Translations under genes and position numbers: made by a program
DNA from: Thermodesulfobacteriota bacterium
Lineage (GTDB): Bacteria; Desulfobacterota_D; UBA1144; Nemesobacterales; JAJCZQ01
Direction: 5' to 3'
DNA length: 64,000 nucleotides
NCBI GenBank assembly: GCA_965203965.1
Contig: CBDBDR010000015.1
Location: forward strand, 51,032 to 115,031
The notes under the pieces: model-generated
Told to the model about the DNA's origin: nothing
Databases searched by the model: none
Seen by the model: only the letters and a program-made list of their open reading frames with translations
Part shown: piece by piece, positions 1-59,836 of the stretch
Numbering within the stretch: position 1 is the stretch's first letter
How the letters are laid out: every line of letters starts with the position of its first letter

Positions 1-3000
1 GCTCTTCGCGAGGCAATATACTTACATGCTTCCGAGTTTAAGGCTCGAGGAAACCAGCCAATTATGGGACAAGAGATTCCTGCTAGCTATTTTCAGCTCA
101 ACAAAGAATTGGAGAAGATACAACAACAAGTGAAAGAAAACAAGAGTGAGCCAATCATGCATGCCGAGCGCTTCAAGGATCTAGTTCAACAGCTGAAGCT
201 CCCTGACATCCACAGCGATGGAGAGCTGCGAACAGCCACCCTCTTCCTCAACGAGGTAGGAACTATTCTCCACTATGATGATCGTAGCCACAACTTAAAT
301 GAGCTATATTTCGTGGATCCTCGTTGGCTTTGCGACATGATGTCAAAAGTTGTCACAGTCAGAGAAAGAAACAACTTTGTCAAGAATGGAATTCTCCATA
401 GTATGTACATACCATTTCTTTATCGTGACAAACGATTTCCCTGGCAGTACTTTGAGCAGTATGTCACTCTTCTGGATCGCTTTGAAATAGCTCTTCCTCT
501 CGACAACAAGCGAATACTTATTCCCTCCATGTTGCCCATTGAGCGTCCAAACGATGCTGATCTGTCTAGTCATCCAGATGGCCCTTACTACATGCGCTAC
601 ATCACATTTGCTACTACTGTTCCTCCTGGATTCTGGAGCCGACTTATCTCTCGTATCATGCACACTGTGCCTGAAGTGTGCCATGCTGTTGATGTGAAAG
701 CTGCCATGTCAAGTGATGAGGAGGCTATGGCATATTCTTATCCAGGAACACCAGATAAACCAGGTGACTTACTTATGGATTCTTCTGAGGCCGTCTCTCC
801 TGCTGGACCTCAATCTCCCAAGCCACAGTCTCCTTTGTCTACTCCTTCTACTCCTTCTACTCCCGGTAGTCAGCCTACTGTTCACCCACCCCTTGTTTTG
901 CCTAATATCAGTCGCATTATTCATGATGAAGACTTTGGCGATGTCAATCCTGAAGACATCAAACTGGTGTACTGGAGAGAAGGACTAGTGTATGATGGAC
1001 CTACAGTTAGTTTTGCTGTGGAGTCACTGACAAGATCAGGGCATAGATCAAAATCTGGTAGACAAGGTGTGTTATTAAAGGCATCTCCTACTGGGAAAGG
1101 CACCAAGACTATCTGCCTCTTGGTCGACTTGGTATTGGCACTTATTCATGACTGGTATCCAGGCCTGAACGAAAGTACCTTTGCCAGTGGATGTGGTGTT
1201 GAGCAATGCATCCCTTGCTATGAGTGCCTCAGAGAAAACCATAGTGATCCTTTTGAGTTTGAAATTGAGCAATCACGTCTACATATAAGTAACAATCAGA
1301 TGCAGATACGATGTGGATACAACACAAGAGATGATTCAGCCAATCATTTAGTCCAATTAAGTGACATTGTTCCAGATATGCTCTTGAGAGATCTTGATGC
1401 TGTATTTCTCCTTAAGAATTCTGAAATCAAGTATCAAGAAGATGCCAATTCTTTGCTAGGTGAGGGAGGCTTTGGAAAGGTGTATCGAGGCAAGTGCAGA
1501 GATAAGAGTGTTGCTATTAAGAAGTACATAGTGAACAGCAGTCGTCTTGAAGATGCCTTCAGTGAGCTTCGAGCAGAAGCTCTTGTTCTTCAGAAGTCTC
1601 ATCATCCGTGTTTAGTGTGTCTTGTGGGAGTCTGTGTTCATCCTATGATGGCACTGGTTCTAGAGGAAGCTCCCATGGGATCTTTAGAGAAGTACCTCAT
1701 TAAGAAACCAATACCAATTTCTCGAGTTGTGATCTATCGCATGGCAGCTCAGATTGCAGCTGCACTAAGGTTTCTTCATAATACGGGGTACATCTTTAGA
1801 GATCTGAAAGCAGCAAATGTGCTCGTTTGGTCACTAGAGCCTGAGTCTTTGTGCCACTGCAAGGTAACAGATTTTGGCATCGCCACGCACCTCTCTCCAG
1901 TTGGAGCACTTGGAATTCAAGGAACAAAAGGGTTTATTGCTCCAGAGGTTCTCTACATTGGAAAGAGGAAGGCTGTCTATACTCACAAGGCTGACATTTT
2001 TTCTTTTGCAATGTTGCTGTATCAGATGATTGCTCGTCGCCATCCTTTTCATAATGTACAGCCAGTGAAGATTGATACGAAGGTTGTGAGTGGAGAGCGT
2101 CCGAACATTGTTGATGTCCCTTTCGCTGACACTGGTTACTTTTTCTTGACCTACTTGATGAAGAAATGTTGGGAAGACAGACCAGAGTTACGACCACAGA
2201 CCAGTGATATCATCAACAAAGTGTCTGGAATGGTCATGCAGTCAGTGATGGCCATACATTCGGTGAACAGCCGCTTCTCTGTACGCCGTTGCTGTGCGAT
2301 TACACCAAGTAACTATGCTCGTGCTAATGTAGGCAACCATCCAAGTGAGCTTTGGGTTTGTTGCGATGGGGCCGAGGGAGCGGAAGTTAATATCTACAGC
2401 ACTCGAATGGTGAAGCTGAACAAAAACTTTATCAAAGATAATCAAGTGCAGTGCATGTGCGTGTGTGGAGACCATGTCTGGGTTGGATCACGAGCTGGCA
2501 TTGAGTATGGAGTGATTGATATATTCAGCATCACATCACGCGAACTTGTTCACAACATCCGAATGAGAGAGAATTCAGTCTCCTGTATCACCTGCTCTGA
2601 CTCAACTGTCTACCTCGGTACACTTGAGGGCTACTGTTTTGCTTTCTGCATGGATATCAAGGCCATTCAGTCGAATGCTCGTCCACGATATAAGTACATC
2701 TCTGAGAATGCAGTGGATGGTATCGCTGTGACTAACAAGCATGTATGGGTGTCTCACACTAAACTGATATACTTCCTCAACCTTGAAACACTGCAAATGG
2801 AACACTCCTGGCACCGACAAGGGAATCAAGATGAAGGGAATCAAGATGCGTTCATTGGACAACTGTCATGTTCAAATGATGGAAAGATCATCTGGAGTGC
2901 TCATCTTGGAGGAACAATATTATCTGCTTTTGATGCACACGATGAGACCCACTTGTACGATATCAATATCCAGCAAGAGTTCATACGTTTAGTGGGGAAA

Positions 3001-3969
3001 GGAATCCACTCAGAATATGATATCATAATGACAGCCGTAACTCCAGCACTAGACACAGTGTTTGTGGGCATGGCAACAGGTCACATCGTGGTATTCCATG
3101 AGCAACTAGTAATGATGATCGCTCGACCATACACAGAGTATGTGAGGTTCCTTTGTCCGATTTTATCAGAAGGCCCTTGCCAGACAGAAAAGTGCATGGT
3201 CTTGGCTGGAGCTAAAGGATTCACCAGCCCTTTACCAGAGTACGATGTTGTTCTTTCTACAGCCGACTCAGAGGAAGAAAAGGGACATCAATCAGCCGGT
3301 GTACTAGTGATGTTTGAAGCTTATCCTGGCCCAATGATAAAGCAGATGAAATGTCTTGAGGATGATGAAGGAGGCTATTTGTCATCACACACTAATCTCG
3401 CCAGAATGATTCGTAGTCAGCACTTCAAAGATGCTACTCATATCCTTGATTTAGCTGGAAAGAGTGAGACACTGAGACCAGTTCTACAGAAAACCACCAA
3501 AGATTTTGAAGAAAGCGGCATTCGTCACTCTATGCTGACCTCCTCCATAGCTGGCTCTCTTCCCTCTACTCCTATCAAACAATCAAATGAAAATTTTGAA
3601 GAGAAGAAAATTTCACCACTTCCCTCATCCACCGAGATAGATGGACAACCTCCTTGTAACAAGGAAGAAATTATCAAAGAATTGGAATCTCCTCCTCGAC
3701 CACGAGCAAGAACCAACACGGTTATTCAAGAGACAATGGATGTGGAAGTGCAAGGCCAAGCGGTACGTATCTCCTGTCCCAAGCCAGCAACAATGTCAGA
3801 AGTTATGAGAGAGCTAGCCATCAATACATCAAAGGAGACAACTCAGAACCATTGTCTTGGGTATAGAGCTCTAGATTCGGGAATGATGATAAAGGTGCTC
3901 GCAGACGATGAACTACAGCAGTATCTCAAAATGGAGTCTCGACCCAGCCTAACCTTGATCCTAAAATAA
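1..3969 (+). CDS. LRRK-type ROCO kinase, copy 1 (5' part outside window): end of Roc, COR, TKL kinase, WD40-like repeats, C-terminal PB1-like domain
   Basis: Open frame from window start to TAA 3969. COR motifs (GTILHY, YFVDPRWLCDM, PPGFWSRLISR), kinase motifs GEGGFGKVY, VAIK, RDLKAAN, DFG, GTKGFIAPE, then WD40-like repeats (VQCMCVCGDHVWVG, VFVGMATGHIVVF). Confidence 0.92.
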   Translation, partial: ALREAIYLHASEFKARGNQPIMGQEIPASYFQLNKELEKIQQQVKENKSEPIMHAERFKDLVQQLKLPDIHSDGELRTATLFLNEVGTILHYDDRSHNLNELYFVDPRWLCDMMSKVVTVRERNNFVKNGILHSMYIPFLYRDKRFPWQYFEQYVTLLDRFEIALPLDNKRILIPSMLPIERPNDADLSSHPDGPYYMRYITFATTVPPGFWSRLISRIMHTVPEVCHAVDVKAAMSSDEEAMAYSYPGTPDKPGDLLMDSSEAVSPAGPQSPKPQSPLSTPSTPSTPGSQPTVHPPLVLPNISRIIHDEDFGDVNPEDIKLVYWREGLVYDGPTVSFAVESLTRSGHRSKSGRQGVLLKASPTGKGTKTICLLVDLVLALIHDWYPGLNESTFASGCGVEQCIPCYECLRENHSDPFEFEIEQSRLHISNNQMQIRCGYNTRDDSANHLVQLSDIVPDMLLRDLDAVFLLKNSEIKYQEDANSLLGEGGFGKVYRGKCRDKSVAIKKYIVNSSRLEDAFSELRAEALVLQKSHHPCLVCLVGVCVHPMMALVLEEAPMGSLEKYLIKKPIPISRVVIYRMAAQIAAALRFLHNTGYIFRDLKAANVLVWSLEPESLCHCKVTDFGIATHLSPVGALGIQGTKGFIAPEVLYIGKRKAVYTHKADIFSFAMLLYQMIARRHPFHNVQPVKIDTKVVSGERPNIVDVPFADTGYFFLTYLMKKCWEDRPELRPQTSDIINKVSGMVMQSVMAIHSVNSRFSVRRCCAITPSNYARANVGNHPSELWVCCDGAEGAEVNIYSTRMVKLNKNFIKDNQVQCMCVCGDHVWVGSRAGIEYGVIDIFSITSRELVHNIRMRENSVSCITCSDSTVYLGTLEGYCFAFCMDIKAIQSNARPRYKYISENAVDGIAVTNKHVWVSHTKLIYFLNLETLQMEHSWHRQGNQDEGNQDAFIGQLSCSNDGKIIWSAHLGGTILSAFDAHDETHLYDINIQQEFIRLVGKGIHSEYDIIMTAVTPALDTVFVGMATGHIVVFHEQLVMMIARPYTEYVRFLCPILSEGPCQTEKCMVLAGAKGFTSPLPEYDVVLSTADSEEEKGHQSAGVLVMFEAYPGPMIKQMKCLEDDEGGYLSSHTNLARMIRSQHFKDATHILDLAGKSETLRPVLQKTTKDFEESGIRHSMLTSSIAGSLPSTPIKQSNENFEEKKISPLPSSTEIDGQPPCNKEEIIKELESPPRPRARTNTVIQETMDVEVQGQAVRISCPKPATMSEVMRELAINTSKETTQNHCLGYRALDSGMMIKVLADDELQQYLKMESRPSLTLILK

Positions 3970-4152: not shown

Positions 4153-7100
4153 ATGGCAAGATATTTTAGCTTCAAGAAAAAAGACAGCAACTCGCTTCAA
4201 GGTAAGAAACTCCGCGTCCGTGCTTCTGAATCATTTGCGGCTACGACCTGTACGAGGTTGCCGCTGGAGCAAATGTACAATGTATTCGAATGGTGGATAG
4301 GGCATTATTCATTGCGGTAGGAGGTGGTCGGATTTTTATTTTGGTTTGGTACAGATATTAGCGCCATTATTACCCTGGGGTAGGGTTGGGTTTGTCTGTC
4401 TGTATGTAGTATGTGTATGTACAAAAAACGTGGCTGTTTATTGCCTTACTGCTCAAAGATTGTCATGAAATAGCTCTCAACAGCTTGGTTGTTGAATATT
4501 TATTCAACGCTTGCGAAGTCATGCATGAAAGTCTTCTGTCGCGTGCTACGGCCATGCATGTATTCCTATTAGCAACATCGCCGATTAGAACATTCCGGTA
4601 AGTAGGTGTGCCACAATTGTGAGACGTGGCCAAGCCATTAAATTAAAATCCACCAATAATTATTTTGACAAAACGCTAATAATTATACATGTAGTACTTT
4701 GCGCCAATATTTTCTGCTATATGGTATGAGATACCTATGTCCATTGCTGTTCCATTTAGCGACTGATTAGAGCATAATAATTATTAGACCACAGCTAAAC
4801 AACGCTCACGTGTCTTTGCTCGTCGTTCGTGTTGTTTTTGTTTGCTGTTGCTATGGTCTAAATCAGTTAGACTGCGCATCCAATCGGATCTACGCGATGT
4901 AGATGCCCTCACGCCGTTACCATAGCGCCCTCGCTACACTCGGATGCTATATAGCAACGGCTCTCGGGCTTCTAAATTGTGTAGATCCTCGGATGCGCTG
5001 TCTAACTATTATTTATAATGAGATTTACAGTGAAACCCCTCTTAATTAGCATGGACCGGACTCATCTCTCTATAATAGCACTTATTATTACTGAACCCCA
5101 AATAATGGATACCCTAGCTCTCTAAAATGGACAATATTGTTTGTCCTAATGGTGTCCGCTTTATAGAGGCTCCACTGTATCGCAAACTTCTGACTTGTTT
5201 AACTTTCAGAAATGGTGTTAGTTTTTAAGATTTGGTTTGTTTATAGTTTTAGAATCAGTTCTGTTTTTGTTTGAGGTTTGGACGTTTATTATGACAAGAA
5301 GGTTTTCATAATAAAAGCTTGACTCAATGAATGATTTTATGTAAGTCCACAAAGAAGTCTGTGGAGTATGTTAAGCTCCTGTTTGAGCTAATTTATAATT
5401 CTTAAAACCTGTATTGGCAAAAGGAAATGCCATTTAGTAAGTTAGTGGTTTTCCAGAAGTAACACAAGTATGCAGCAGTCATAGTGCATTGTCTGGTAAC
5501 AAGGATTAAAACTCACAAGACTGAATAATTATTATTGCACCAAAATTTAAACAGCTTGATGGTAGCCAGCAAAAGTATCCTGATCTACTTGAGTGCCCGA
5601 TACTGTTTTGCTTGGCTACTGATGAATATCGAACAAGTCTGAACTTCATGGAATCCTCGAGGACAATTCACTACATAGTTAGCAAAATAGCTTTACTCTC
5701 TCAGGCCCTAGTAAGACAGTTAGTAGATGAGTACTGTTCGTAATTTTGATGCTAGAATTGGTATGCCATTTTCCAGCACAGCGCCCACACATTATGCTCA
5801 CTGCAGCTACATCCATGGAGGCGCAGCAGAATTCGACTAGATGATAATCATTCAATGACTCAATACAATGTTAATGTTGTGACTATGGTTAATCGATAAT
5901 CAAGGTAGAGGAGCTCCACATTATGACACTGTAAGCGTGGATGCTTTTTACTATGCGAAAACAGTAAAATTTCTGTGTTTATTGTAGCAAATTTTTACAC
6001 TACTGATTTAATAGTGTGTGATAGAAACTTTTCACTAAAATTTTAATCATAGAAAAAATCCAAGAAACAGAGGATGAGGATCGAATAAAGAATGAGGAAT
6101 TGGAGAAGGACTGCCTCGAGCGAGCTCTCACAGCTGCTGTCACAACTGGTAACCACTTCAATGTGGGCAAGTTGATTGTTAAGGGTGCCACAAATATCGA
6201 CAATGCCCTCAAGCAAGCCATCGAAACAAAGAAATACCATGCCACGGCCATGCTTCTTTTGGTTATTGCTGCTATGAAAGGGAAATGTCAGCTTGTTCTG
6301 AAGCTGTTTACTGAGTATTCTGGGGCTGTTGCTCTCCCTGAAGGTGTAGAAATCACTGAAGAGGATATCAAAGAAGTACAGAAAGCTGTTACATCTGGGC
6401 AAGTATCCACAGTCGTACCAATCGAGATAGCTCGAAGAAAGGGCCAGGATAGTGTCCGAGAGGAGCTGCTTCTTCACACTGAAGTGAAACAAGATGAAGG
6501 CACCGTATATTGGCATGGGCTACGACTGCTGAATATTGAGCTCTCCTGGATCAGAAAGATTCACTGGGTAAAGAGACTACGTCTTGCTCGAAATGGATTC
6601 CGCTTCATTCCAAGTGAAGTCAGACAATATCTAAAACAGGTAATTAGTCAGCATAATATTTTTTCCAATTAGAATTAAGGCCTACAAAGTGCATTGAATT
6701 CCCTTTGGAGAATTGCTCGTCCAAGGTGAAGTCAATGCGCATTGAGTGCGTTCACAATTTAGTGACAATACAAATAAAGAAACGATTTGAAAAATGAATT
6801 AGCCATTACCGCTGTCATGTGACCAAATTTCTCTTGGCGTCCTAGTCACTTCAGTAGCCCATCCAATCATCCATGCAGTTGTAGTACCCCTCTAGTCTCT
6901 CTGCATGCACTCACGAAGCACATTTTCACGATTTCATGCAAGAGGTGTGACTTCGTTATTGATGAATAATAATATGATTTGCTTGAATCGCTTCCAGTCC
7001 ACTTCCAAACCATCTCCGTACATGGTTTAGCTGAAAGCGCATTGAACTCGAATGCGCATTCAGTGTGAATGATGCAAATCGAATTCAATGTGCATATAAT

Positions 7101-10100
7101 GTACATTGAATTCGCAATTTTGCCATAGTATAATGAAGGGCCTTAAATGGGTGCACACTGCTCACTTCATACTTGTTTACTCTTTCCCTATCTAGGTCGT
7201 TCTGCTTGATTTACAGCACAATGAGCTGACAGAAATACCTCGTTGTATCCTTGAGCTGCCTAGTCTAACCAAACTCATCCTCTCCCACAATCATATTGTG
7301 GAATTGCCTGATATACATGAGTGGTCCGCTGGTCTGACAGTACTAGATTTGGCTTTCAATGAGCTAAGTAACCTCCCTAATACAATCGTAGCTCCCTCCA
7401 TCAGGACACTGAATATCAGCGGCAACAAATTTCGCTTCGTTCCACTTTGCATCTGCTCGTTTACCAGCCTTCAATATCTTGATCTCAGTGAAAATGTTCA
7501 CATTCGCTTTCTTCCTGTTGAAATGGGTCGACTCTCTAATCTTACTAAGCTAGGACTGAAGGGTCTGAAATATCTCAGTGATCCTCCACGTAATGTTCAG
7601 CGTGATGCAAGAGACTGTGTTTACTACCTCAATAGCAAGCTTCGCAGTGCTAAAAAATTTTATCGCATGAAGCTTATGCTTATTGGCAAGCAAGATCGAG
7701 GTAAGACAACTTTGGTAACTCGACTGCTAGGCAATGAGATCGTGGGTCCCAACCAGTCTACGGTAGGTGTAGACGTGAGCGAGTGGAATTATGGTGGTAT
7801 TGGCAAGCGCAAGTTTCAGTTTAGTATCTGGGACTTTGGTGGTCAAGAAGAATACTATGCTACTCATCAGTGCTTTCTCTCTGAGCGATCTATGTACCTC
7901 CTTCTTTTCAACCTCAAGCACGGAGAAAAAGGAGTTGAGGAGCTCAAACCATGGCTTGACAACATTGTCCTCAGAGCACCACGTTCCTGTGTCATCATTG
8001 TTGGTACTCATCTTGATGAAGTGGAAGACTCAGAAAGGCCACAGATCGACCAACTTCTCAACAGTGTGGCCACTCTTGCCAGCAGCTATGGCAACAAGCT
8101 GCAAGTTCCTGAAGTACTGCCTGTTGGTCTTGTGAACAGGCTAGAGAACATAGGATATCTTCGTGAGGCAATATACTTACATGCTTCTGAGTTTAAGGCT
8201 CGAGGAAACCAGCCAATTATGGGACAAGAGATTCCTGCTAGCTATTTTCAGCTCAACAAAGAATTGGAGAAGATACAACAACAAGTGAAAGAAAACAAGA
8301 GTGAGCCAATCATGCATGCCGAGCGCTTCAAGGATCTAGTTCAACAACTGAAGCTCCCTGATATCCACAGCGATGGAGAGCTGCGAACAGCCACCCTCTT
8401 CCTCCATGAGGTAGGAACTATTCTCCACTATGATGATCGAAGTCACAGCTTAAATGAGCTATATTTCGTGGATCCTTGCTGGCTTTGCGACATGATGTCA
8501 AAAGTTGTCAGAAGAAACAACTTTGTCAAGAATGGAATTCTCCATAGTATGTACATACCATTTCTTTATCGTGAGAAACAATTTCCCTGGCAGTACTTTG
8601 AGCAGTATATCACTCTTCTGGATCGCTTTGAAATAGCTCTTCCACTCGACAACAAGCGAGTACTTATTCCCTCCATGTTGCCCATTGAGCGTCCAAACGA
8701 TGCTGATCTATCTAGTCATCCAGATGGCCCTTACTACATGCGCTACATCACGTTTGCTACTACTGTTCCTCCTGGATTCTGGAGCCGACTTATCTCTCAT
8801 ATCATGCACACTGTGCCTGAAGTGTACCATGCTGTTGATGTGAAAGCTGCCTTATCAAGTGATGAGGAGGCTATGGCATATTCTTATCCTGGAACACCAG
8901 ATAAAAAATCAGGCGACTTACTTATGGATTCTTCTGAGGGCGTCTCTTCTGCTGGACTTCAATCTCCCAAGGCACAGTCTCCTTTGTCTTATCCTTCTAC
9001 TCCCGGTAGTCAACCTACTGTTCACCCACCCATTGTTTTGCCTAATATCAGTCGCATTATTCATGATGAAGACTTTGGCGATGTCAATCCCGAAGACATC
9101 AAACTGGTGTACTGGAGAGAAGGACTAGTGTATGATGGACCTACAGTTAGTTTTGCTGTGGAGTCACTGACAGGATCAGGGCATAGATCAAAATCTGGTA
9201 GACAAGGTGTGCTATTAAAGGCATCTCCTACTGGGAAAGGCACCAAGACTATCTGCCTCTTGGTCGACTTGGTATTGGCACTTATTCATGACTGGTATCC
9301 AGGCCTGAACGAAAGTACCTTTGCCGGTGCATGTGGTGTTGAGCAACGCATCCCTTGCTACGAGTGCCTCAGAGAAAATCATAGTGATCCTTTTGAGTTT
9401 GAAATTGAGCAATCACGTCTACATATAAGTAACAATCAGATGCAGATACGATGTGGATACAACACAAGAGATGATTCAGCCAATCATTTAGTCCAATTAA
9501 GTGACATTGTTCCAGATATGCTCTTGAGAGATCTTGATGATGTATTTCTCCTTAAACATTCTGAAATCAAGTATCAAGAAGATGCCAATTCTTTGCTAGG
9601 CGAGGGTGGCTTTGGAAAGGTGTATCGAGGCAAGTGCAGAGATAAGAGTGTTGCTATTAAGAAGTACATAGTGAACAGCAATCGTCTTGAAGATGCTTTC
9701 AGTGAGCTTCGAGCAGAAGCTCTTGTTCTTCAGAAGTCTCATCATCCGTGTTTAGTGTGTCTTGTGGGAGTCTGTGTTCATCCTATGATGGCACTGGTTC
9801 TAGAAGAAGCTCCCATGGGATCTTTAGAGAAGTACCTCATTAAGAAACCAATACCAATTTCTCGAGTTGTGATCTATCGCATGGCAGCTCAGATTGCAGC
9901 TGCACTAAGGTTTCTTCATAATACAGGGTACATCTATAGAGATCTGAAGGCAGCAAATGTGCTTGTTTGGTCACTAGAGCCTGAGTCTTTGTGCCACTGC
10001 AAGGTAACAGATTTTGGTATCACCACGCATCTCTCTCCAGTTGGAGCACTTGGAATTCAAGGAAACAAATGGTTTATTGCTCCAGAGGTTCTCTACATTG

Positions 10101-11629
10101 GAAAGAGGAAGGCTGTTTACACTCACAAGGCTGACATATTTTCTTTTGCAATGTTGCTGTATCAGATGATTGCTCGTCGCTGTCCTTTTCATAATATACA
10201 GCCAGTGAAGATTGATACGAAGGTTGTGAGTGGAGAGCGTCCGAACATTGTTGATGTCCCTTTCGCTGACACTGGTTACTTTTTCTTGACCTACTTGATG
10301 AAGAAATGCTGGGAAGACAGACCAGAGTTACGACCACAGACCAGTGATATCATCAACAAAGTGTCTGGAATGGTCATGCAGTCAGTGATGGCCATACATT
10401 CAGTGAACAGTCGCTTCTCCGTACGTAATTGCTGTTGTGCAACATTGTCTTGCAAATCTGCTCAATTCCATAGCAGTAGCCAATTCAGCGAGTCTTGCAA
10501 ATTCAACAGTAGGAGCCTATTGGGTGAGCTTTGGGTTTGTTGTGATGGGACTGAAGGAACAGAATTTATCATTTACAGCACTAGAATGGAAAATCTGGGC
10601 AAGATACTCATCAAGAACAATCAAGTGCAGTGCATGTGCGTGTGTGGAGACCATGTCTGGGTTGGATCACGAGCTGGCATTGAGTACGGAGTGATTGATA
10701 TATTTTGCAAGACGTCACATGAGCATGTTCATAACATAAAAATGACTAAGTTGGTCTCCTGCATCACCTGTTCTGACTCAACTGTCTACCTCGGTACACT
10801 TGAGGGCTACTGTTTTGCTTTCTGCATGGATATCAAGGCCATTCAGTCGAATGCTCGTCCACGATATAAGTACATCTCTGAGAATGCAGTAGATGGTATT
10901 GCTGTGACTAACAAGCATGTATGGGTGTCTCACACTAAGCTGATATACTTCCTCAACCTTGAAACACTGCAAATGGAACACTCCTGGCACCGACAAGGGA
11001 ATCAAGATGCGTTCATTGGACAGCTGTCATGTTCAAATGATGGAAAGATCATCTGGAGTGCTCATCTTGGAGGAACAATATTATCTGCTTTTGATGCACA
11101 TGATGAGACCCACTTGTACGATATCAATATCCAGCAAGAGTTCATACGTTTAGTTGGGAAAGGAATCCACTCAGAATATGATATCATAATGACAGCCGTA
11201 ACTCCAGCACTAGACACAGTGTTTGTGGGCATGGCAACAGGTCACATCGTGGTATTCCATGAGCAACTAGTAATGATGATTGCTCGACCATACACAGAGT
11301 ATGTGAGGTTCCTTTGTCCGATTTTATCAGAAGGCCCTTGTCAGACAGAAAAATGCATGGTCTTGGCTGGAGCTAAAGGATTCACCAGCCCTTTACCAGA
11401 GTACGATGTTGTTCTTTCTACAGCCGACTCAGAGGAAGAAAAAGGACATCAATCAGCCGGTGTACTAGTGATGTTTGAAGCTTATCCTGGCCCAATGATA
11501 AAGCAGATGAAATGTCTTGAGGATGATGAAGGAGGCTATTTGTCATCACACACTAATCTCGCCAGAATGATTCGTAGTCAGCACTTCAAAGATGCTACTC
11601 ATATCCTTGATTCACCTACGCATGTTTGA
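4153..11629 (+). CDS. LRRK-type ROCO kinase, copy 2 (ANK-like, LRR, Roc, COR, kinase, WD40-like), C-terminally shorter than copy 1
   Basis: Inferred exons 4153-4201 (MARYFSFKKKDSNSLQ, gtaag donor), 6053-6639 and 7196-11629 splice in frame. LRRs (LDLAFNELSNLP), Roc P-loop GKQDRGKTT, WDFGGQEEYY, THLD, COR and kinase. Near-identical to copy 1 over ~8155-11611. Confidence 0.9.
4784..5010. mobile_element. Non-autonomous palindromic element: short inverted-repeat pair plus ~145 bp hairpin with CCTCGCTACACTCGG centre
   Basis: TTAGACCACAGC (4784) and GCTATGGTCTAA (4850) are inverted (11/12). 4865-5007 is an imperfect palindrome (AGTTAGACTGCGCATCC...GGATGCGCTGTCTAACT). Same design as 40567-41474. Confidence 0.65.
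5028..5177. mobile_element. Tc1/mariner (pogo/Tigger-like) MITE
   Basis: TA|CAGTGAAACCCCTC...GAGGCTCCACTG|TA: imperfect TIRs flanked by TA. Termini resemble those of 47228-47337. Confidence 0.65.
6679..7142. mobile_element. Possible degenerate non-autonomous DNA element in ROCO intron 2
   Basis: TTAA|GGCC...GGCC|TTAA ends, with repeated AATGCGCATT/CATTGAATTC motifs near both ends. TIR match beyond 4 bp is poor. Confidence 0.3.
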
Positions 11630-11870: not shown

Positions 11871-14800
11871 TTAGTTATTAATCCTGTCAGCCATCTCATT
11901 CTCTTCCATCCGTTTTAGAGCAGCTCTCAACACACTCCATGAGGGCACACCTTTCTGTGATACAGTGTCTTTCTGTTGCAGCCAAGCTACCAGCATCTTT
12001 AACTTGCACTGTGAGATATTTCTATGCTGTTCTTCTGAAATTCTTTCCAATGTGGGATAGTGCAGGCCCAACTTTAGACCAAGGTTCATCCAGTCATTCA
12101 GATCTTCTACAATTTCCAACACATCACACAGATCATTAACAGCTGTGAGTGAAAAAAAAACAGTTTTGTGATCTAAAGTCTGTTTCAAAACATGACACAG
12201 ATGCCAGCATTAGACAACAAGGCTTATGACACTGCATGATAAAAATTACAATCTAATCTTAGTATTGATCAGCATAATGTTTGTTAGAAGCTAGCACAAG
12301 CATCATATTGTAGCCAGGTTTTACTCACAGAGTGTGTCACTGCTAACAGCATCAGGAGCTTCTGGTGGCTCTATGTCCTCTGCTTTCAGTTCTGCTACTT
12401 CCTGTACACACATACATAATACTACTGCACATGTCATTAGCAACAGTGCTCACCAGAGGATTCCTACCGGCAAATATGCTTTGTTTGTTCAGGCAATCTC
12501 TCAGTTCCTTATGGTCTTGTGGTTTCTGCTGGGCCTGTTGGAAGTACCTGAGTACTTCCTGAAAGAGGGAATCTAGAACAGGTTGGCTAGCCATGGTTTC
12601 TTTGAAGAGCTGGCAGACAGATGAGGGTCGTAAGAGATAGTAAGGTTCACAAGATAGAGCATCACTTGTAAGAAACTTGTTTCTTCCTTCCTTTCGATCC
12701 AAAAGAAGCTTATGCTGAAGAAGCATCGACTTTGCTACTGTAGGCATATCAAATAGGTCGATATCAGGCAAGATGTCAAAGGGATAGCGGTCTAGTAGAG
12801 AGGGAGAGATTAGACATTCACATGTGCTCACAACACTGCACAGCTGCTGTTGGAGGTCAAGGATCATCCTAATGACACTGCTAATGATCTCTGCTGCTTC
12901 TGTACTTTTCTCAGACACCAGCACAATAACCCAGCGATTACGATCCACAATCTCTACTACTGTGGACACACCAGAGACGCTCTCCCAGCTAATTCCATTT
13001 CTCCACACCATGCATTGTCGCTCAAGACCACGTAGAGAAGAAGAGGGAGAAAGATGCTTACTGGCCAAAGGAAATGTGAACGCTAGTCGAAGGAGAAGGA
13101 TATGTAGAAAACGATTACTGAAAAATTGATGAGGGTCACTGCATCCCAAACACCAGCCAAACCTAGGAGAGAAGAAAATATCAGGTCGATGCTCTTTAAC
13201 TAAACTTGGGAAAAAGAGATGGCTTGCTCCTAATGGTGATGGTATTAGTGATCCTAAGTTAGTTCCTTGAAGTGCTGAGGGGTCTACTGGACGACAGAAT
13301 TCCATGCTCTCAAGACAGCCCACTAGCATCTCTGAACTATACCGAGGGAAAAACTCTTCTAGGGCTGTAATAGGTACTATTCCAGTATTGCTGGAGAGAG
13401 ATCGGCGATACTGCTTAAAATTGTTGGGAGCAAATAGTGTTCCATTGACGTCTCTCAGTAGCGTCTCTTTCTCTACAACCACCCAGCTAGACTGGGGACG
13501 TCCCTGGTTAAGCACAAAGATAATGAGGCCTTTATCACAGAGGAAGGTTAGTGACTCTATCAGTATAGTAGAGTCAGGAGAAGGAAAATCTTTGTCTGAA
13601 GCAAGAGAAGAGGCCAGCTCTTGTACTGTGCAACTTGACTTCCCAAGCTTTGTTCGAAGAAAAGCATACAACACATGACAGTACAAACTCATGCTGGGCT
13701 GGGATGATAGTATGGCTTGTTGACTGGTTGAGAGGAGAGAACGGAATTGACGTGCCTCTTTGGTTTTTGACCATCGGCAATCCATGCTAACAAATCCTCC
13801 ATATGTCAGCTGCTTCATTCTGCTCTCTGCTATGCTCTCCACTAGTGAGCTCTTCTCCTTGATTTCTCGTGGTGACTTGACCAGGTCAGCATGGCTGCCA
13901 ACTATGATGATGTGTGATGATTCTTTGGCTGAGGTGCAGGCATTCTCGATAAAACTCATCCAGTAGTGTACAGACTCACTGATCTTCTCCATGCACTGGC
14001 TCATATCAACAATATTAACAAAAATAGCAGCAGAATTCTTCATGACACGTTCTAGTACAGCGGCATGACTAGAATAGTACTCTTGCTGGCCAGCGAAATC
14101 ATATAATACCATGTTACCAACCTCCTCCACTTTGCTTTCGATATGAAGAGGTACGATTCCAGCAGTGAGGCATTCTACATTAGAAACACGACCTGATGAT
14201 AGAACTGAGAAAAACCCAGCCTCTTTAGCTGTGGCTAAGAGAAGAATAAGCTGAGATATGGTGGTTTTTCCTGCTCCACTGTATCCAGTTAAGATAACTT
14301 TTGTGATAGCGTGTACAGGGAAGTCCCTCTTGTATTGTGGAAATGACTGAAACAGTTTCAGTATATCATAACTGTCATCATGTTTACTCGCATAGTCTAG
14401 CGGAGTTTTTCCAAACTTGTCCTCGGCCAGAGGGTCTACTTTACCAGTTGACAGTAAGTATAAGATAGTGTGTGTGCAACCATTGCAACAGGCTCGATGA
14501 AGTGGTGTATGACCATTCTTGGTCTTACATGATGGGTCACAGCGTACCTCACTGATGAGATATTGGGTGATGTTGAGATGACCAGAATTACAAGCAAAGT
14601 GAAGCGGCGTATACTCATCATTGTCTTTAATCATTGGATCACAGTGTTGTTCATTGATTAAGTACCTTGTTATCTCCAGGTGACCATTGATAGCGGCATA
14701 GTGCAGAGGAGTGCTTCCATTAGAGTCCCTAGAATTGGCGTCGCACTTGTAATTGGCTATCAGTTCAATGACGAGATTCACCCAGTCGTGGGCAGCTGCC

Positions 14801-14994
14801 AGGTGGAGCAGGGAGACGAGACTAGCAGCCCACCAAACTACTGGAACATTGATCGTTATCGTTCTGGCGCCAGCTGGTTGTCGTGTTTGTGGTAGTAATC
14901 GCTCAGCGTCTAGTTTGTTCCCTCGTTGAAAAGCTACAACGCATTCTCTTTCTAATCGTTCTTGTGAATGCTGTGATGACGTTGCTGTAGACAT
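11871..14994 (-). CDS. Ankyrin-Roc-COR-Death domain protein (DAPK-like architecture without kinase)
   Basis: Exons 14994-12454, 12401-12329 and 12142-11871 splice in frame. Ankyrin repeats (GSTPLHYAAING, YTPLHFAC, HTPLHRAC), P-loop GYSGAGKTT, YDFAGQQEYY, IVGSHAD. Last exon is a death domain (WMNLGLKLGL...MLVAWL...PSWSVLRAAL). Confidence 0.88.
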
Positions 14995-17020: not shown

Positions 17021-20000
17021 CTAATACACACTCAAGATGAGAGAGAAGGTGAAAGACAGGCTTTTCATATCGATAACCATGTTAGAGCTGAGTTCTGGCC
17101 CCACTGCTAGTACTAGTTCCTCCAGACGAGTCTCCAGTAGTTCTCTTTGCTTATCCTCTAACTGGTAGTTCTCCACTAACTCACGGAAGGGCAGGTATCG
17201 CTGATGGTTCAGACAAATGACCACACTCCCAACGTCAACACTGCTGGAACCAGTCAAACGCTCACGACGTACTCTATCCAGTGACAAGGCATCGCCAGGA
17301 CAACATTCTTCTTGACAGCATTTTTCTTGACAGCTTTCCTTACTACAACAGGGCTAGACTGAAAAACATTAATAAATGTTTTGATCTCCACACTATCTGT
17401 CTGATCGGTGGCTGTGTCCTTTTCTTGAGCTTGTCTCCATTTCTCTCTAGCCTCTTCTTGAGCTTTCTTGACTCCATCCAGTCCACACACCCAATCTGTG
17501 ACAGTACAAGGACTATAGAAGTCGCCAGGAGTGTAGTTAGCTTTGTAACTGAGCTTGTGATTGCTGCCATTCCACCCTTGCAGGTAGTAGTACTTGATGT
17601 TGGGGTTGCGTTCACTTAGTTTCTGTGCAAATTCGATCTCCTTTAGAGCAGAGTAGACTCCGAGAGACAGTTTCTGCATCTCCTTGCTCATAGAATACCA
17701 CATGTACAGGCTCACCACTCCGTTAGGGACAATATCGATTAGTCCAACAGCAACTAGCTTCCCATCCAGCCGATACAACTGGTGATGGGTCCCATACTCG
17801 ATCCCATCAATAGTCTCATTTCTGATCGGGCTATTTACAGTATGCTGTGCATACGAGAACTCTGATTTGGATGGTTTGTTATGTTTGTGTTGATGGTATT
17901 CGTTATAGAGCTCAAACGACTCTCTCACGAACTGGGTAGGGATGGTTTCAATGGTCATACTGTCTGGCACTTTCTTGAGCACTTTCCGATAGCTTTTACG
18001 GGAACGATGGTTGAACTCTGAGAGGATCACTCTTGTCTCCCAGTCACTGCAATTCAAAGAGTGGTTATAACGGAATCGATACATCTTGACAGCTCCTCTG
18101 CGGTACCAGCCATTGTCAATGAGACATTGGTATTGGTGAGGGGTAAGACCATGTGGTCTAAAGACTAGCTCTTCTGAGTGATCATCACTTTCACAATTGC
18201 TGCAGCTTGTGTGGTTGTTACCACATAACCTTCCAACACGAAAAAGCGGTTGATCAGGTGACAGGCCTAGCTTAGAAAGCTGCTGCTTGTCTGTTTCTGA
18301 GAGAAAAGGAGCAGATGGATGTTGTGCAACCAGGAACCTCTCGTCATCTTGAGGAAGAAGAGTGAGTGGAATGCGAGTGATCAACACACTGTCATTATCT
18401 ATGGGCAAAGGAGCTCCTGAAATTACCTCAGGCCATGTCAGACTGTCCTTCAATGCACTCAATAGTTCTTCCTCTTTGTCTTGGCTAACAGATAAAGTGA
18501 AGAGAGCGCTTTTCTCCAGTAGTGTGACTGCCCATCTTTGGAGGTCAGGATTGGCTCGAGTCAGACGATCGTTTTCTATCTTTTTCTGAACACCTCGAAC
18601 AAAACCAAGTTCTCTCAGTCTCACAGCATTTATGTCTAAATCAACTGCTGCAAGGCTAAGCAAGACCGTGTAGCCAGCAACTTTGGCATCACCGGTTGAA
18701 TTGAGTATCTCGTGAGCAGTTCTTAAAACCGGCATTGTCAGCACATAGCACTTATTAACTAGTGCCATGAAGCCAATCGAGGCTATTAAACCTAGAGACT
18801 GCCATACCAGATCCGCAACATTTGCTCTAGTGTGAAGTAGACGAAGGAGAACACTAACAACTCCACACTCTGCAAACATACGCTTGGCAGAGTCTCCTGA
18901 TCCAAGAATGCGCAGAACTCGGCAGCAAGCACCAAGAGTAAGAGCATCAGTGTCAACCATGCGTTGATCAAGAAACGTAAACAATTTCTCATGGAACTTG
19001 TCATCCAATATACCTTGTTTATAGCATGGCTATTTAGTGCTACATTGCCGATGGCATGTATTGATGAGCGAGTGATCTGTGGCTCATAATGACTGCTAAC
19101 CAATGAGTAGAGTTCTTGCATGTATCCCTGCGAGTAAAGGAGATCAGACAGATTCTTGTCGGCTGTAAGACTCAAAACAATTCGACTGAAATGTCCAGCA
19201 TATTCTGTAGCCTCATTGTCGTCATTAGACGACCGCATACCCACCTGTTGGGCCAGAAGAACAATCATCGAAGGCAGCTTAGTAATGGCAAAAGATGTAA
19301 TGTTTTGCAAATATGTATGATACAAACGAATGAGTACAACGACAAGATTAAGAGTGACCGACCGAAGCTCTCTTTTCAACTTTATTGTTGACAATACATT
19401 GACTACCTTGGTATGAAGATCCAAGTCTAGCACTGCTTGAGCCAATTCTTTGCCATTGATGACATGGATTACAGAGTGCACTGTAATGACTAGCAGGCGA
19501 GTTTCGTGCTGAAGATCGTCAACATCTGAAAAGATCTTAGAAAATATTGTTTCAAGAAATGGTTTATTGACAAAGGTTGGTGGTATTCCATTCTTGAAAA
19601 GCCGAACAGTGGTGGAATAGATTGCTAAACGATGCTCAGAAGTGACCAATTGATTTTCGAGAAGATTCTTGATAAAACAGACATGGTTGTTACTGTAAAA
19701 CTTTTGCTTTAGCTTTTCATTTGCAGAATTAACAGTGAAATGACCGCGAACAAAGAATGGCAAGGAAGCTAGATCAGGAGGGAATTGTGACGAGACAGAG
19801 TCAATGGCAGCACAAGTAGGAAGAATGCATAGAGTGGGCCACTTTTCTGTTGCTTCTTTAAGTCGACCAACAATATCATACTGCATCAATAGCTCAATTG
19901 TTGGCTGTTCTTTTATATGAGTACACAGCAACGCCAAAAAATTGGCTATTTCCAAAAGAATTTCTTGATTCTCGCTCACTCCATTAGAAACATCTAAGAT

Positions 20001-21212
20001 CCCTAGAATGAGTGTCATTAGTTCTCGACAGTTCAAACTTGCTGGAATAATAGTGGCAGGATATTTCGTACAACACAACAGAAGAAACTGGATGACCTGC
20101 AATGTAGACCTGTTCTGTTGGACGGCTTGAGCTTGAAGAATGAGAAATATAGCTGACAGCAATGTAGCACCATCAAGCTCACTCATGAAAGAAGGCGAAT
20201 TCTCACACAGTTTCATCATTATCTTCCATATTAGCGACTGACACGCCATAGCCATGGAAAACTTTTGAGCAGCAAAGAGCAAAAGTAGATGAGAAGATTC
20301 TTCAACATACTGATCAGAACTGCTGGGACAAGCTTCAAGAAACTTGATTAAAGCACAAAGCAGCCCGGCTAATTCTTCTTTCTCCATGACATCGTAGCAG
20401 CCAACTAGCATTCTTAGCTTTCTGTGTACGCCATCACTATCAAGCTGTCGAAGGAGTGAGATTGATAGTCGTAAAGGAAATTGCCTACCACAAGCAATGG
20501 CTGGTTGAGTGAGACTACCATAGGTGTCTGTGTCGAATGCCTTGCAGTAAATTGCTGCAAGATTGGACACCAGTTCAGGAGAAGAAAAGGATCGTTGAAA
20601 ACAGACAGAAAGATCGCCTGTCAATTCAATAAGTATAGGTCCTCTAGATGGGTGATCTTTCCAGCTGAAAGACGAAAGAGCTGAGAGCACAGAAGAGACC
20701 ACCGGAAAAGTAGTGGAAGGAGAAGAAATTGGGACAAATTTACTAGCAGCCGAATGACATGCTTTTGTAACATTAGCAATGACATCATCATTGTGCAGGA
20801 ACTTTCTGACCACTCTTTCAACAGCCAGCCACAACCTACACAGAAAACATTAATAATAGAGTGTAAATGTTCTAATTATGAGGTGAAAATTAGTGTCATG
20901 CAAATTAACAAAACTGAATCCAGAAAGTGAAAGTCAACGGAAACATTAATTTCTGACCAACCTTACGAATGCACCGTGTTTGTAGGATATACTTACCTTG
21001 TAAGCTGGAGTGGGGTACATTCCATACTTGTATCCATCAAAATTTCGTTGATAACAGACATGTCAGCATCACAATTTGGGTCAGTTCCTGTGATCACGAA
21101 ATATACAATTTCTAAGTATTCTGGTCTGTTCAAAACAATCCTGACCTGTCGCCATGACACTGTTACATGAAGACCCGTCTTCTCGCTGAACTACAGATTC
21201 ACTGGCTCCCAT
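17021..21212 (-). CDS. Large ARM/HEAT-like helical-repeat protein fused to a divergent arginyl-tRNA--protein transferase (ATE1-like) domain; apparent frameshift near 19015
   Basis: Exons 21212-21146 (MGASES...), 21087-20997 and 20835 onward. ORFs 18792-20834 and 17254-19008 overlap in different frames. ATE-like motifs YQCLIDNGWYRRG, YGTHHQLYRLDGKLVAVGLIDIVPNGVVSLY, SLGVYSALKEI, YYYLQG...KLSYK. The tail (ORF 17021-17287) joins via a possible 38-nt intron. Confidence 0.75.
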
Positions 21213-21338: not shown

Positions 21339-24031
21339 ATGTCTCTTTCAAGGTAAGATCCACGAGTACAGCTTCTAGAACACACATGAGTCTTATTTCT
21401 TTCTTCTTAGCTTGTTGCCCAAGCCGACCCAGCTAGCCTATGACCCATCAGCTGAAACTGGAGGTGGGAATGCTTCTTACCAAGTATGTCTTAAAACTCA
21501 CTATTCTCTGTCAATGTTGATGTGTGTGTATATTAAACAGCCTGTAACTAAAAAAGAGCCACCACCGTATGGTAGTCGAAGAGGATGGACTCCACGATCA
21601 TTAGAGGTTGTGATATATTGTGTGTTGCTTACTCAATCACTCACTGCTGCTGTTAGGATTATGGCGACGGTGGGGCATTTCCTGAGATACATATAGCTCA
21701 ATATCCACACAATATGGGCAAGAAAAAGGTGACTTTATTTACAGTAGATTGTAGATCCTCCTACTAAACTTCACTATTTGAACCATTTTCATGGCTCTGT
21801 GGCCACGGGTTCAGATAAATGAAGCTGTGTATTTCAGCCATACCTTGAGGATGCTGGCGGGCTTTACATGTTGGGCTACACAACCCATATGGCCATGGGC
21901 GATGCTCTGTATGTTCTTCTGTGTCCAGATTATTGGTGATGATTTTTTGAAAATCTTGCCAGCTTATTGGCAAACTTCTGGTTATGTGTGAGCAAGCTAA
22001 ACTAGTTAGCAGAAAGCCAGAAACATATTTACTCACCATGATGAGTATGGCGGCTTCAACCTTCATTACGACACCTCTGCTTGGGCTTCATGTCCTTGAT
22101 GCTTGTAAATCGGATATTGCCCACGCAATAGTGTTATTAATAACATACCCACAAATTTTATTGCTAACAATCTAGTTGTAGCAAATTTTTCCTATAGCAA
22201 TCGTCAGCAGTAGTGCCGTTACAGCTGGATGCCACTGGTAAGCTGAAGTTTGATGCCTTAGCCAGGATTGGTCAGCGGAAGGATAAGGTAAACTGTTGTT
22301 AGACAGAGATATCACTGCCGCCTCCATTGCTACTTGTCTCTAGGTTGTGCATAGCTCACTACAGGCTATGGTCCCTGCTAATATCAGTGCCAATGACCCT
22401 GGACTAGTTCCTCCTGATGAAGAAGATTTAGAGAAGGTGACAGAAGAGACCAGGCAAGCCCTGGAAAAGCTGGTACAGAAGAAGGTATCAGCAGCTCAGC
22501 CTGTCAAAGCTGCAGAGAAACTGGCACCAGCTCAGTACATTAGGTTAGTATTTTGTTCATGTGATATGCTACTGCACCATCTCCTGCTCCTTAGGTACAC
22601 TCCAAGTCAGCAGGGAGCTGCCTACAATTCTGGAGCCAAGCAAAGGGTTATACGTATGGTTGAAGCCCAGCGTGATCCTATGTCTCCTCCTCGCTTCAAG
22701 ACCAACACCAAAATCCCTCGTGGTCCTCCCTCTCCACCTGCACCTGTGCTCCACTCACCAACAAGAAAAGTAGCCATTGCTATACTTGCCTTCGGTACAG
22801 TCTCATTATACCACCTTCTTTTAGGTTACAGCCAAGGAGCAGCAAGACTGGAAAATCCCTCCTTGCATTTCTAACTGGAAGAACAATCGCGGTTACACCA
22901 TTCCACTGGATAAAAGGCTGGCAGCTGATGGGCGAGGCTTACAGGATCACACTATAAATGACAACTTTGCAAAACTAGCCCAGGCACTGTACATGGCGGA
23001 CAGAGAGGCATGACAAAAATAGGCAACTGTGTACTTCTTATTATTGCCCACTCTACAGGCTAGAATTGCTGTGGAGACTCGTAACCAGCAGGAAAGGAGG
23101 TTTGCTCAAAAGACTCAGGAAGGCAAGGAAGCAAAGCTGAGGGAGCTGGCTAGACAAGCCAGAGATCAACGAGCGGGCATACGAACAGCTGATGCAGGAG
23201 GTGAGAAAGATATAACAAGTGATTTCACCTTGTTGTGATTCACCTTGCTGTGTGCTACCTACAGATGATCAAGAGGTAGCTAAAGAGAGAGATCAGTTGA
23301 GATATGAGCGACACAAAGAGAGGGAAAGAGATCGCAGAATAGCTCGTGCTCATCCTGATAAGCGGTAGCTAAAAATATAGATTACTATATTGCATTGTCA
23401 ATATTTCTCTTCAGGTCTAAGCTAGATCGTAACAAGGACAGAGATATCAGTGAGAAGATTGCTCTTGGAATGCCTACTGGGGCTAATTCACAAGAAACCA
23501 TGTTTGACCAGCGACTATTCAATAAGACACAGGTCAGCAGTCTATACTATCAACTCTACGTCTCTCTCATTTGTAATGTTGCTTCAGGGCTTGGACTCGG
23601 GCTATGGTCTGGAAGATGATACCTACAATGTGTATGATAAACCATGGCGAGCAGCTGGAGGGGCAGGGCAAGCTATATACCGCCCTAGTAAGAATATGGA
23701 CAAGGATATCTATGGTGATGATGTTGAGAAACTTATCAATACTAGCAGGTGAGACAATGTGTTCTCCTTCTCGATTGTTCTGGTCTTTTTTTAGGTTCCA
23801 ACCGGACAAGGAATTCTCAGGCACTGATCGTTCTCGTGTGCGTGATGGTCCGGTACAGTTTGAGAAAGAGGTAGTAGATGAAGATCTGTTTGGACTCAAC
23901 CAGTTCTTGACTGAAGCCAAGAAGGCAAAGCGTCCGACAGACAGCTCCAGGTGAAATACTTATTGTGTCGCTGTAATGTCAACATTCTCTATTGCAGGGA
24001 CAGCTCTCGCTCTAAAAAACCAAAATACTAA
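21339..24031 (+). CDS. SNW1: SNW domain-containing protein 1 (SKIP/Prp45), multi-exon
   Basis: PPPYGSRRGW, YGDGGAFPEIHIAQYP, YIRYTPSQQ, PRGPPSPPAPVLHSPTRK, IPPCISNWKN, DRDISEKIALG, GPVQFEK. Confidence 0.96.
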
Positions 24032-43027: not shown

Positions 43028-43251
43028 AGTCATTTTTACATGCATCTTTTTATTATAATTATTTCTAATGTAATTCTGTTTCTAATACAAAAACGACCCT
43101 TACTAATTATTTTGTCCATGCATGCCAAGCGCTACTGCGTGTAGATTCATAATCAAATTACGAAGTGGATGACGCATGCATAATACATTTTGTCGACCGC
43201 AATAAAATACTGTGCATAGCGCCTTGCAGTAGTTGGCAATTCAGTTGAGCA

Positions 43252-45396: not shown

Positions 45397-45741
45397 CTTG
45401 TTATTTAATGGTGTGTCATTCATTATTAATATTGCATGCTTGTATTAGTGTTGGCGATTCTTAATCATCACCTTCCCATCACTACTACTACTATTATCAT
45501 TAGTTATCACTACTCATTATTCAATTTCATCAAGAATATGAGTGTATATCACTGTTTGTGTGTGTGTGTAGGTATAAGTTTACAACAATCTGCTAAGTTA
45601 TTTTGAGTTGAGTATAAAAACCAGCTAATGGTACACAGATAGTGCATGGTGTCCACAAACACAAATACTGTTTGCACATGAGTCCCACAAAGTAACCACC
45701 ATACTCTGAAGTTATCACAACAAGACTAGACCAGATGGTAT

Positions 45742-59611: not shown

Positions 59612-59830
59612 TGACGTAGGCCGGATATGGAAGCCACCCAAACCACGTGTACTGGGTTTATAACTCTTCTGCGCATGCCTGCAAGCTATGGTTGATATCT
59701 GTTATCCATCTCCTTATACGGCGCTGTAAAAGGCTGGTACACTCAGTTGCCGTAGATCGAGTCTCTGGCGATTCTGGAATCAACACCTTCTTCCATACAA
59801 GGCAACTCTGCGGCTGACTTTACCGGATAT
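59612..59830 (+). promoter_or_regulatory. Putative SRF proximal promoter
   Basis: TGACGT 59612, CCGGAT 59621, CACGTG 59644, TGCGCATGC ~59670, near-CArG CCTTATACGG 59712 and CCATACAAGG 59793. Confidence 0.45.
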
Positions 59831-59836
59831 AAAGCG

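Follow-up and report, generated by a model that had tools for sequence, protein, structure and literature searches.

In eukaryotes, the arginylation of proteins is attributed to a single stand-alone enzyme, ATE1, whose substrate selection is poorly understood. Substrate selection in ubiquitin ligases is carried out by receptors such as ARMC5 and ZER1. Here, we analysed a window of 64,000 nucleotides, namely positions 51032-115031 of contig CBDBDR010000015.1 (hereafter C15) in GenBank assembly GCA_965203965.1. At 17021-21212 on its minus strand, the window holds a gene of about 1320 codons with two short putative 5′ exons, an armadillo (ARM) solenoid of about 800 aa, and a C-terminal ATE1-type domain. 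We found that ARM-ATE proteins form a real, conserved, and apparently undescribed eukaryotic fusion family, and the locus encodes a member of it, probably a tRNA-dependent arginyltransferase with a built-in ARM scaffold for the recruitment of substrates. The initial annotation of the DNA had not recognized this architecture, and no paper on an ARM-ATE fusion was found; searches of the literature for arginyltransferase with armadillo or with sponge yielded nothing relevant.

The closest described enzymes are the ATE1 proteins of human (8tzv), Saccharomyces cerevisiae (7tif/8e3s), and Kluyveromyces lactis (7wg1). With these, ARM-ATE shares the ATE_C match, the GNAT-based ATE fold, the CxxC motif, the Arg pair, the Arg-pocket residues S, S, E, and Y, the lysines of the tRNA helix, and the equivalents of H303, K415, and K419. 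It differs from them in sitting behind a solenoid of about 800 aa, in missing the long variable insert that canonical eukaryotic ATE1 has between ATE_N and ATE_C, in the sequence CSNC and the replacements D305K, R317E, F318H, and Y369W, in a one-residue Tyr insertion (GWYRRGG) and a two-residue K-E insertion, in its separate clade, and in an ATE_N part that scores below the Pfam cut-off. The bacterial Leu-tRNA-protein transferase Bpt also has a compact ATE_N and ATE_C core without the eukaryotic insert, but ARM-ATE comes from spliced eukaryotic genes and is joined to ARM repeats, and its donor pocket reads S, S, E, Y, whereas PMC9351520 reports A, A, Q, L for Bpt. The ARM substrate adaptors (beta-catenin/importin-alpha fold; ARMC5 and ZER1 type) have the same right-handed superhelix by fold. 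Unlike these adaptors, ARM-ATE carries no BTB or other E3-linking domain, and the partner domain is a transferase.

The fusion itself was read most directly from a second copy on the same contig, which was located through a second ATE_C match in a profile search of the genome. This paralogue is one intact open reading frame (ORF) of 1264 codons at C15:29141-32935 (5142-8936 of the locus L003, C15:24000-40000), on the opposite strand and 36 kb from the window copy. The two copies are convergent, one on the plus and one on the minus strand, and a profile search of the approximately 0.48 Mb of host DNA in the assembly returned just these two fused copies. In all five related metagenome loci, the fusion was likewise contained in one frame of 963-1283 codons. 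With the 591-aa piece of the window copy as the query, exhaustive HMMER searching gave 1972 matching proteins at E ≤ 1e-3, of which 34 reached E ≤ 1e-30; among the first 31 matches, 20 were at least 900 aa long with the match in the C-terminal half. A word-seeded search with the whole paralogue gave at least 119 clusters of 829-1460 aa at 27-98% identity, with ATE_C in 119 of the 119. Most of these clusters covered at least 88% of the query, and the majority had a precomputed ARM_ARMC5 match. Several shared the same longest-contig size, which suggests tandem paralogues among them. The family thereby flags over 100 public proteins, either unnamed or called "uncharacterized", as ARM-ATE, and the fusion of ARM and ATE parts proposed in the initial annotation is real.

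When 30 of the proteins were looked up, two JGI rows were named arginyltransferase and one "hypothetical protein", and a species name was attached to one cluster only, Sycon ciliatum XP_065175038.1 ("uncharacterized protein LOC135804982", P0161). This protein of 1310 aa has the same order of ARM, ATE_N, and ATE_C, carries the insertion as GWFRRGG, and falls in the fused clade. It differs from the local copies by an identity of only 23% over the C-terminal half, a long branch (1.55), an intermediate motif (YYYLGNYCPTNRKLAYK), and a start, MEGIL, without a myristoylation motif. In the ESM Atlas, the full-length query had no usable match, and the ATE part led to generic ATE1 and bacterial clusters only. 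Among species-representative prokaryote genomes, two bacterial ATE-like loci (about 30% identity) and no other contaminated assembly were found.

A FastTree phylogeny of 92 rows was built from a subsample comprising every third fused protein plus five picked ones, every second canonical ATE1, and one bacterial outgroup. All 49 fused-type ATE regions lay on one side of a branch with a Shimodaira-Hasegawa-like support of 99, and the 42 canonical sequences and the bacterial one lay on the other. Together with the conserved signature of the family described below, this separate clade bears out the divergence of the ATE part from canonical ATE1.

In the window copy, the ATE_N-like part extends over 18013-18207 and contains CSNC (18204-18193), GWYRRG, and HSLNC; it aligns with human ATE1 residues 21-100. 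The ATE_C part, the GNAT-type catalytic core with SALKEIEF and YYYLQGWNGSNHKLSYK, lies at 17521-17922, as indicated by Pfam, by the genome profile search (4.6e-28), and by alignment with 8tzv. It is followed at 17051-17329 by a conserved C-terminal segment (..VVICLNHQRYLPFRELV..LEELVLAVGPELSSNMVIDM) with 83% identity to the paralogue, in which C, L, N, Q, R, E, and L columns are conserved across the family. All motifs originally quoted for the gene, CSNC, GWYRRG, HSLNC, and LQGWNGSNHKLSYK, are present in the translation. Pfam ATE_C matched the window copy at 6.2e-27 (95.1 bits against a cut-off of 25) and the paralogue at 88.5 bits, and it was above the cut-off in all eight family members scanned. 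The ATE_N match of the window copy (E 0.0019, 18.8 bits) fell below its cut-off of 27, as did those of the other seven members scanned (17.6-26.1 bits). The similarity to ATE1 is well beyond what chance would give.

The fold of the C-terminal part agreed with its assignment as an ATE domain. In a phmmer search of the Protein Data Bank (PDB), human ATE1 (8tzv) matched at 1e-31 in two stretches and the yeast ATE1 proteins at about 3e-8. Residues 540-1264 of the paralogue were modelled with AlphaFold2 (AF2) from a 113-row family alignment, with a predicted local distance difference test (pLDDT) value of 91.7 and a predicted template modelling score (pTM) of 0.91. Foldseek placed human ATE1 (8tzv_A) at E 2.6e-18 with a target-normalized template modelling score (TM) of 0.75, and yeast ATE1 entries at E of about 1e-11. 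Given its high pTM, the two-domain model suggests that the ARM and ATE parts have a fixed arrangement.

Residue conservation was determined in an alignment of 137 fused-type and 83 canonical ATE regions chosen from 289 local matches, from which 10 fused and 37 canonical rows were dropped for incomplete coverage or length; the family percentages below refer to the 137 rows. Residues were mapped by hand, for human ATE1 (hATE1) through the phmmer alignment with 8tzv and for K. lactis Ate1 (klAte1) through motif offsets, and their roles were taken from PMC11283454, PMC9351520, and PMC10115844. According to Kim et al. (PMC9351520), S255, S273, E277, and Y289 form the Arg pocket of klAte1. Their equivalents in ARM-ATE, S1045, S1065, E1069 (E387 in hATE1), and Y1086, are each kept in 97% of the family, and all four are present in both local copies. 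Of the residues tested by mutation in hATE1, K419 (K1101) is kept in 100%, K415 (K1097) in 94%, and H303 (klAte1 H178; H988) in 94%. In the tRNA helix, which reads RKSYRKVLKK in the window copy, hATE1 K88 (K950) is K in 93%, and K92 (954) is K or R in 99% (K 78%, R 21%). The CxxC metal ligands C881 and C884 are kept in 98%, the Arg pair of the pocket for N-terminal Asp/Glu (hATE1 R56/R57; R915 and R916) in 100% and 95%, and klAte1 Y173 and Y303 in 100% each. At the CC pair, about 70% of the family has C-C, the C-S variant occurs only in the two copies of this species, and a family-specific His (98%) stands four residues upstream of the pair. The altered amino-acid specificity and the altered metal or Fe-S binding that had been suggested at the outset are consequently not favoured by the four kept pocket residues, the CxxC motif, and the CC pair as found across the family.

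The acceptor side presents a different picture. Nine substrate-near hATE1 positions are consistently replaced (Q299H, D305K, R317E, F318H, Y369W, F408G, I410N, G24S, and Y25N), CGYC has become CSNC with Asn at klAte1 Y25, and YYMG[FY]YIHxCPKMxYK has become YYLQGWNxxNKKLxYK. Within the family, the new residues are themselves nearly fixed, with Q1089 at 97%, G1090 at 99%, W1091 at 100%, and N1092 at 97%. D305K and R317E could possibly represent a swapped ion pair. As judged from these alignments, the Arg pocket, the tRNA-helix lysines, and the CxxC motif appear intact, and the acceptor side appears remodelled yet strongly constrained. Such a combination is more in line with an arginyltransferase that is active but has a modified acceptor pocket than with decay or a change of donor. 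The arginyltransferase reading is preferred because the residues tied by published mutagenesis to Arg binding, tRNA binding, and catalysis are conserved; both the enzyme activity and Arg as the donor would follow from that conservation.

A bacterial locus, L004 (2860-3771), from a Tepidisphaeraceae metagenome-assembled genome, encodes a 304-aa ATE-like protein whose donor pocket reads S, S, E, Y, as in the Arg type, and is not of the hydrophobic type reported for Bpt. Since L004 also has Glu at the site of E387, this residue was at one stage considered uninformative on Arg versus Leu as the donor, a view that was dropped because Bpt is reported to have Gln there (PMC9351520). Therefore, L004 is probably an Arg-type homologue, and E387 is informative.

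In the proposed mechanism, the ATE module would bind the acceptor arm of Arg-tRNA(Arg) and pass the Arg on to a client protein at its N-terminus, and the fast-evolving ARM solenoid would recruit or position that client. Substrate choice would thus be built into the enzyme, and not left to a free-standing ATE1. The ARM part was examined in an AF2 model of paralogue residues 1-600, which was all-helical with a pLDDT of 93.6 and a pTM of 0.89. Foldseek matched the helical parts to beta-catenin, SYS-1, importin-alpha, and designed ARM proteins (E from about 1e-6 to 7e-5, TM about 0.5), and at the fold level the helical part is accordingly a genuine armadillo solenoid. At the level of profiles, the ARM_ARMC5 hidden Markov model (HMM) scored 13.3-32.6 bits, far short of its cut-off of 79.9, the remaining ARM models also fell short of theirs, and there was one weak HMM match to ZER1-like_2nd among the family members scanned. 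The ARM part has 15-29% identity to all but one of 112 family rows (the exception, P0162, reaches 47%), and the half comprising the C-terminal ARM region and the ATE domain has 33-50% identity to most of the family. By these identities, the solenoid evolves much faster than the ATE module, which is the pattern expected if it carries client specificity, a role suggested by analogy.

The two local copies show the same division. Their ARM solenoids share about 31-34% aa identity and are saturated at the DNA level, and a tract at 17060-18050 shares about 93-99% DNA identity with the paralogue (L003 positions 7900-8930, approximately), which may reflect gene conversion and/or strong constraint. The pattern suggests that gene conversion was confined to the catalytic half; paralogue residues 984-1003, with 35% aa identity, form a short unconverted island. 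Over 147 codons of the ATE part, the ratio of nonsynonymous to synonymous divergence (dN/dS) between the copies was 0.034 (dS 0.17, dN 0.006), and over 49 codons dN was 0 at a dS of 0.33. The ATE module is under purifying selection.

The window copy consists of minus-strand ORFs at 20849-18792 (685 aa) and 19029-17254 (591 aa) and a tail at 17353-17021 (110 aa). The putative exon 1 (21146-21212) begins with the ATG at 21212-21210 and reads MGASESVVQREDGSSCNSVMAT..., with A at -3, G at +4, and a donor GTCAGG at 21145. Candidate exon 2 (20997-21087; phase 1 in, phase 2 out) ends ..TDPNCDADMSVINEILMDTSMECTPLQLT with a donor GTAAGT at 20996. The GT-AG introns 21145-21088 (58 nt) and 20996-20836 (161 nt), as read from the sequence, would put MGASES in frame with the large 3′ exon (17021-20835), which carries the solenoid (18475-20835, about 790 aa, supported by the AF2 models of the paralogue, Foldseek, and the weak ARM_ARMC5 match) and the ATE domain. 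The upstream exons of the paralogue also splice in frame, with a first exon that starts MGGLFSKNEDRST, and the last intron has the same position and phase in both copies, just before LW(I/L). The large exon of the window copy is read in three frames (-3, -2, and -1), with the stop at 17023-17021 in the last. The initial view of one apparent gene of about 1300 aa is thus supported by the ORFs, the motifs, and the fold, with the proviso that three frames are needed.

The frame changes from -3 to -2 at an AAA run (19018-19020) that is one base short for open reading. An orthologue fragment from a related organism, P0293 (499 aa, 80% identity), crosses this site in a single frame (..GNIALNGHDMKQSVLNDKFHEKLF..), and therefore the window is short of one base there. 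A short intron at 19014-18895 was considered in place of this frameshift and was ruled out by a hand check, as the frames fail to join. The second change, from -2 to -1, was placed by DNA alignment with the paralogue at 17298-17299, where the window has CC and the paralogue CCC. A third homopolymer difference (17062-17065; AAAA against AAA in the paralogue), supported by DNA alignment, the family consensus, and P0006, alters the last 10 or so residues from the family-typical end DMKAC.. to DMKSLSF... In a tblastn comparison, paralogue residues 5-614 matched the window in frame -3 (30.6% identity), residues 622-1167 in frame -2 (62%), and residues 1171-1263 in frame -1 (83%).

Several points weigh against the arginyltransferase reading of the locus. 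As assembled, the window copy cannot make the full protein. In neither local copy does the ATE_N part reach the Pfam cut-off, and the paralogue has no match at E ≤ 0.01. The four-cysteine CX2C...CC site, a motif called "strictly conserved" in ATE1 by PMC10115844, is incomplete, with C-S in both copies. Asn replaces klAte1 Y25 in 92% of the family, where a Y25F mutant nearly loses arginylation of N-terminal Glu (PMC9351520), and acceptor-side Y87 is Phe in 86%. Given the nine replacements, the acceptor could differ or transfer could have been lost, and the recruiting role of the ARM part is drawn solely by analogy with other ARM proteins. The low ATE_N score, the changes of Y25 to Asn and of YYMG[FY]YIH to YYLQGWN, and the fourth Cys lost in the local copies would all suit a non-catalytic pseudo-enzyme that binds tRNA or an N-terminus, in a protein serving as a scaffold only. 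We consider this improbable, as the mappable mutation-validated residues are conserved at 93-100%, except R56, which is offset by the one-residue insertion, and the replaced positions are near-invariant, which fits a remodelled pocket better than a decaying one. An active module with another aminoacyl-tRNA as its donor, such as the Leu form used by Bpt, would account for the compact form without the variable insert, which resembles bacterial homologues, and for the many pocket-lining substitutions. However, the Arg pocket is that of ATE1 and not that of Bpt (PMC9351520), and the substitutions cluster on the acceptor/CCA side as listed for hATE1 (PMC11283454), which makes a change of donor very unlikely. 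An erroneous gene model that joins two adjacent genes, one for the ARM part and one for the ATE part, is scarcely credible: the parts stand in different frames in the window alone, whereas they form one ORF in the paralogue, in the five metagenome loci, and in the RefSeq model of S. ciliatum, and AF2 packs them together.

The three indels comprise two disabling 1-nt deletions and a terminal 1-nt insertion. How they arose was weighed separately, a matter that the initial annotation, speaking of a repaired protein, had passed over by leaving the possibility of a dead gene unweighed. We judge that the window copy is probably a very young pseudogene. If the indels were instead errors of assembly or polishing, the window copy would be a second ARM-ATE gene that is intact and expressed, with a product of about 1324 aa, which we regard as plausible but not probable. 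All three indels are single-base length changes in runs of three to four identical bases, the typical error class of long-read assemblies, and sites 2 and 3 lie in the tract that almost matches the paralogue, in which reads can be assigned to the wrong copy. There are also no in-frame stops in the three frame segments (about 1270 codons in total), the ATE part is under strong purifying selection, and the end branch of the window copy in the tree is short (0.067). However, the other long ORFs of the window are intact (1477, 1322, 1072, 880, 715, 544, and 457 aa), two of the affected runs are short as assembled (3 and 2 bases), and site 1 is in the diverged ARM part, with no close paralogue to mislead polishing. 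The protein collection held no intact protein or fragments matching the window copy, which counts as weak evidence: with the 8000 best word-sharing candidates scored in each search, a search for longer forms gave only the cluster of the paralogue (32% identity), and a search for near-identical proteins found neither identical fragments nor an intact form. With either origin, the window copy was under selection until very recently. In the pseudogene reading, the working gene in the assembly would be the intact paralogue at C15:29141-32935.

The N-terminus was compared with the myristoylation pattern, which we take to be G-{EDRKHPFYW}-x(2)-[STAGCN]-{P}. Both MGASESV in the window copy and MGGLFSK in the paralogue fit this pattern. 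Each local copy has one MGxxx[STAGCN] start candidate upstream, with a good initiation context and an in-frame splice, and in the window copy MGASES is the sole such candidate over the 3.1 kb that precede the large exon. A candidate MG start is missing upstream in three of the five related loci, and the RefSeq model of the Sycon homologue has none. The motif would thus be at best lineage-specific and not family-wide, N-myristoylation of ARM-ATE is putative, and the membrane tethering originally proposed carries less weight than it was given.

As a second lineage of eukaryotic aminoacyl-tRNA transferases, ARM-ATE would offer a natural experiment on the targeting of arginylation, in which an ATE1-type core is hard-wired to a large peptide-binding scaffold. 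Its compact core without the variable domain would be useful for structural work. It is conceivable, though on the whole unlikely, that ARM-ATE proteins are tandemly expanding "self-targeting" arginyltransferases of sponges or early-branching animals, in which a diversifying ARM part would pick the client and an ATE part kept nearly frozen by selection and gene conversion would write an N-terminal Arg mark. If this were true, some client proteins could come from the dense microbial symbionts or from viruses, and the pairing of a recognition part with an effector would parallel that of the TRIM, NLR, and ROCO expansions neighbouring the gene.

The assembly is scored as a 99.5% complete prokaryote genome. 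Of its 17 contigs, the largest measures 1.5 Mb and the other sixteen 4-115 kb, but C15 is eukaryotic host DNA that was binned with the bacterial genome record. It was identified as eukaryotic because it carries spliced genes, an HSP90 that ends MEEVD, SNW1-like exons split by short introns, NRDE-2, an NDUFV2-type ferredoxin, and others. Also on C15 are a MADS box, RING-B-box and ANCHR-like proteins, and tandem LRR-Roc-COR-kinase genes. The host may be a sponge, as the single species-named homologue of the ARM-ATE protein, that of S. ciliatum, suggests.

An Rfam scan of the window gave no matches. Elsewhere in the window, two LRR-Roc-COR-kinase (ROCO/LRRK-like) genes form a tandem pair on the plus strand (1-3969 and 7196-11629) with 93.7% DNA identity; each is one ORF of more than 1300 codons, and the second terminates earlier than the first. 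At 12352-14994 on the minus strand, a single ORF encodes an 880-aa protein in which a Roc GTPase domain comes after ankyrin repeats. The plus strand further carries the SNW1/SKIP-like exons with short introns (22344-22874), the NDUFV2-type 2Fe-2S thioredoxin-like protein (26056-26943; Pfam 1e-62), the NRDE-2 homologue as a single ORF of 1072 codons (49318-52536; Pfam 4e-83), and the MADS/SRF-type box (59756-60343). Three NAD-dependent epimerase/3-beta-HSD-like paralogues (36024-37397, 37519-39153, and 43249-45396, all on the plus strand) have long acidic C-terminal tails with repeats of the PKAEEP/EEPAAEEPK type, and this tail repeat gives rise to long spurious ORFs on both strands at about 44400-45400. 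The intact paralogue of the ARM-ATE gene is flanked (L003 1-4184 and 12840-14447) by the 3′ end of HSP90, an ANCHR/ZFYVE19-like B-box protein, and a RING-B-box (TRIM-like) gene.

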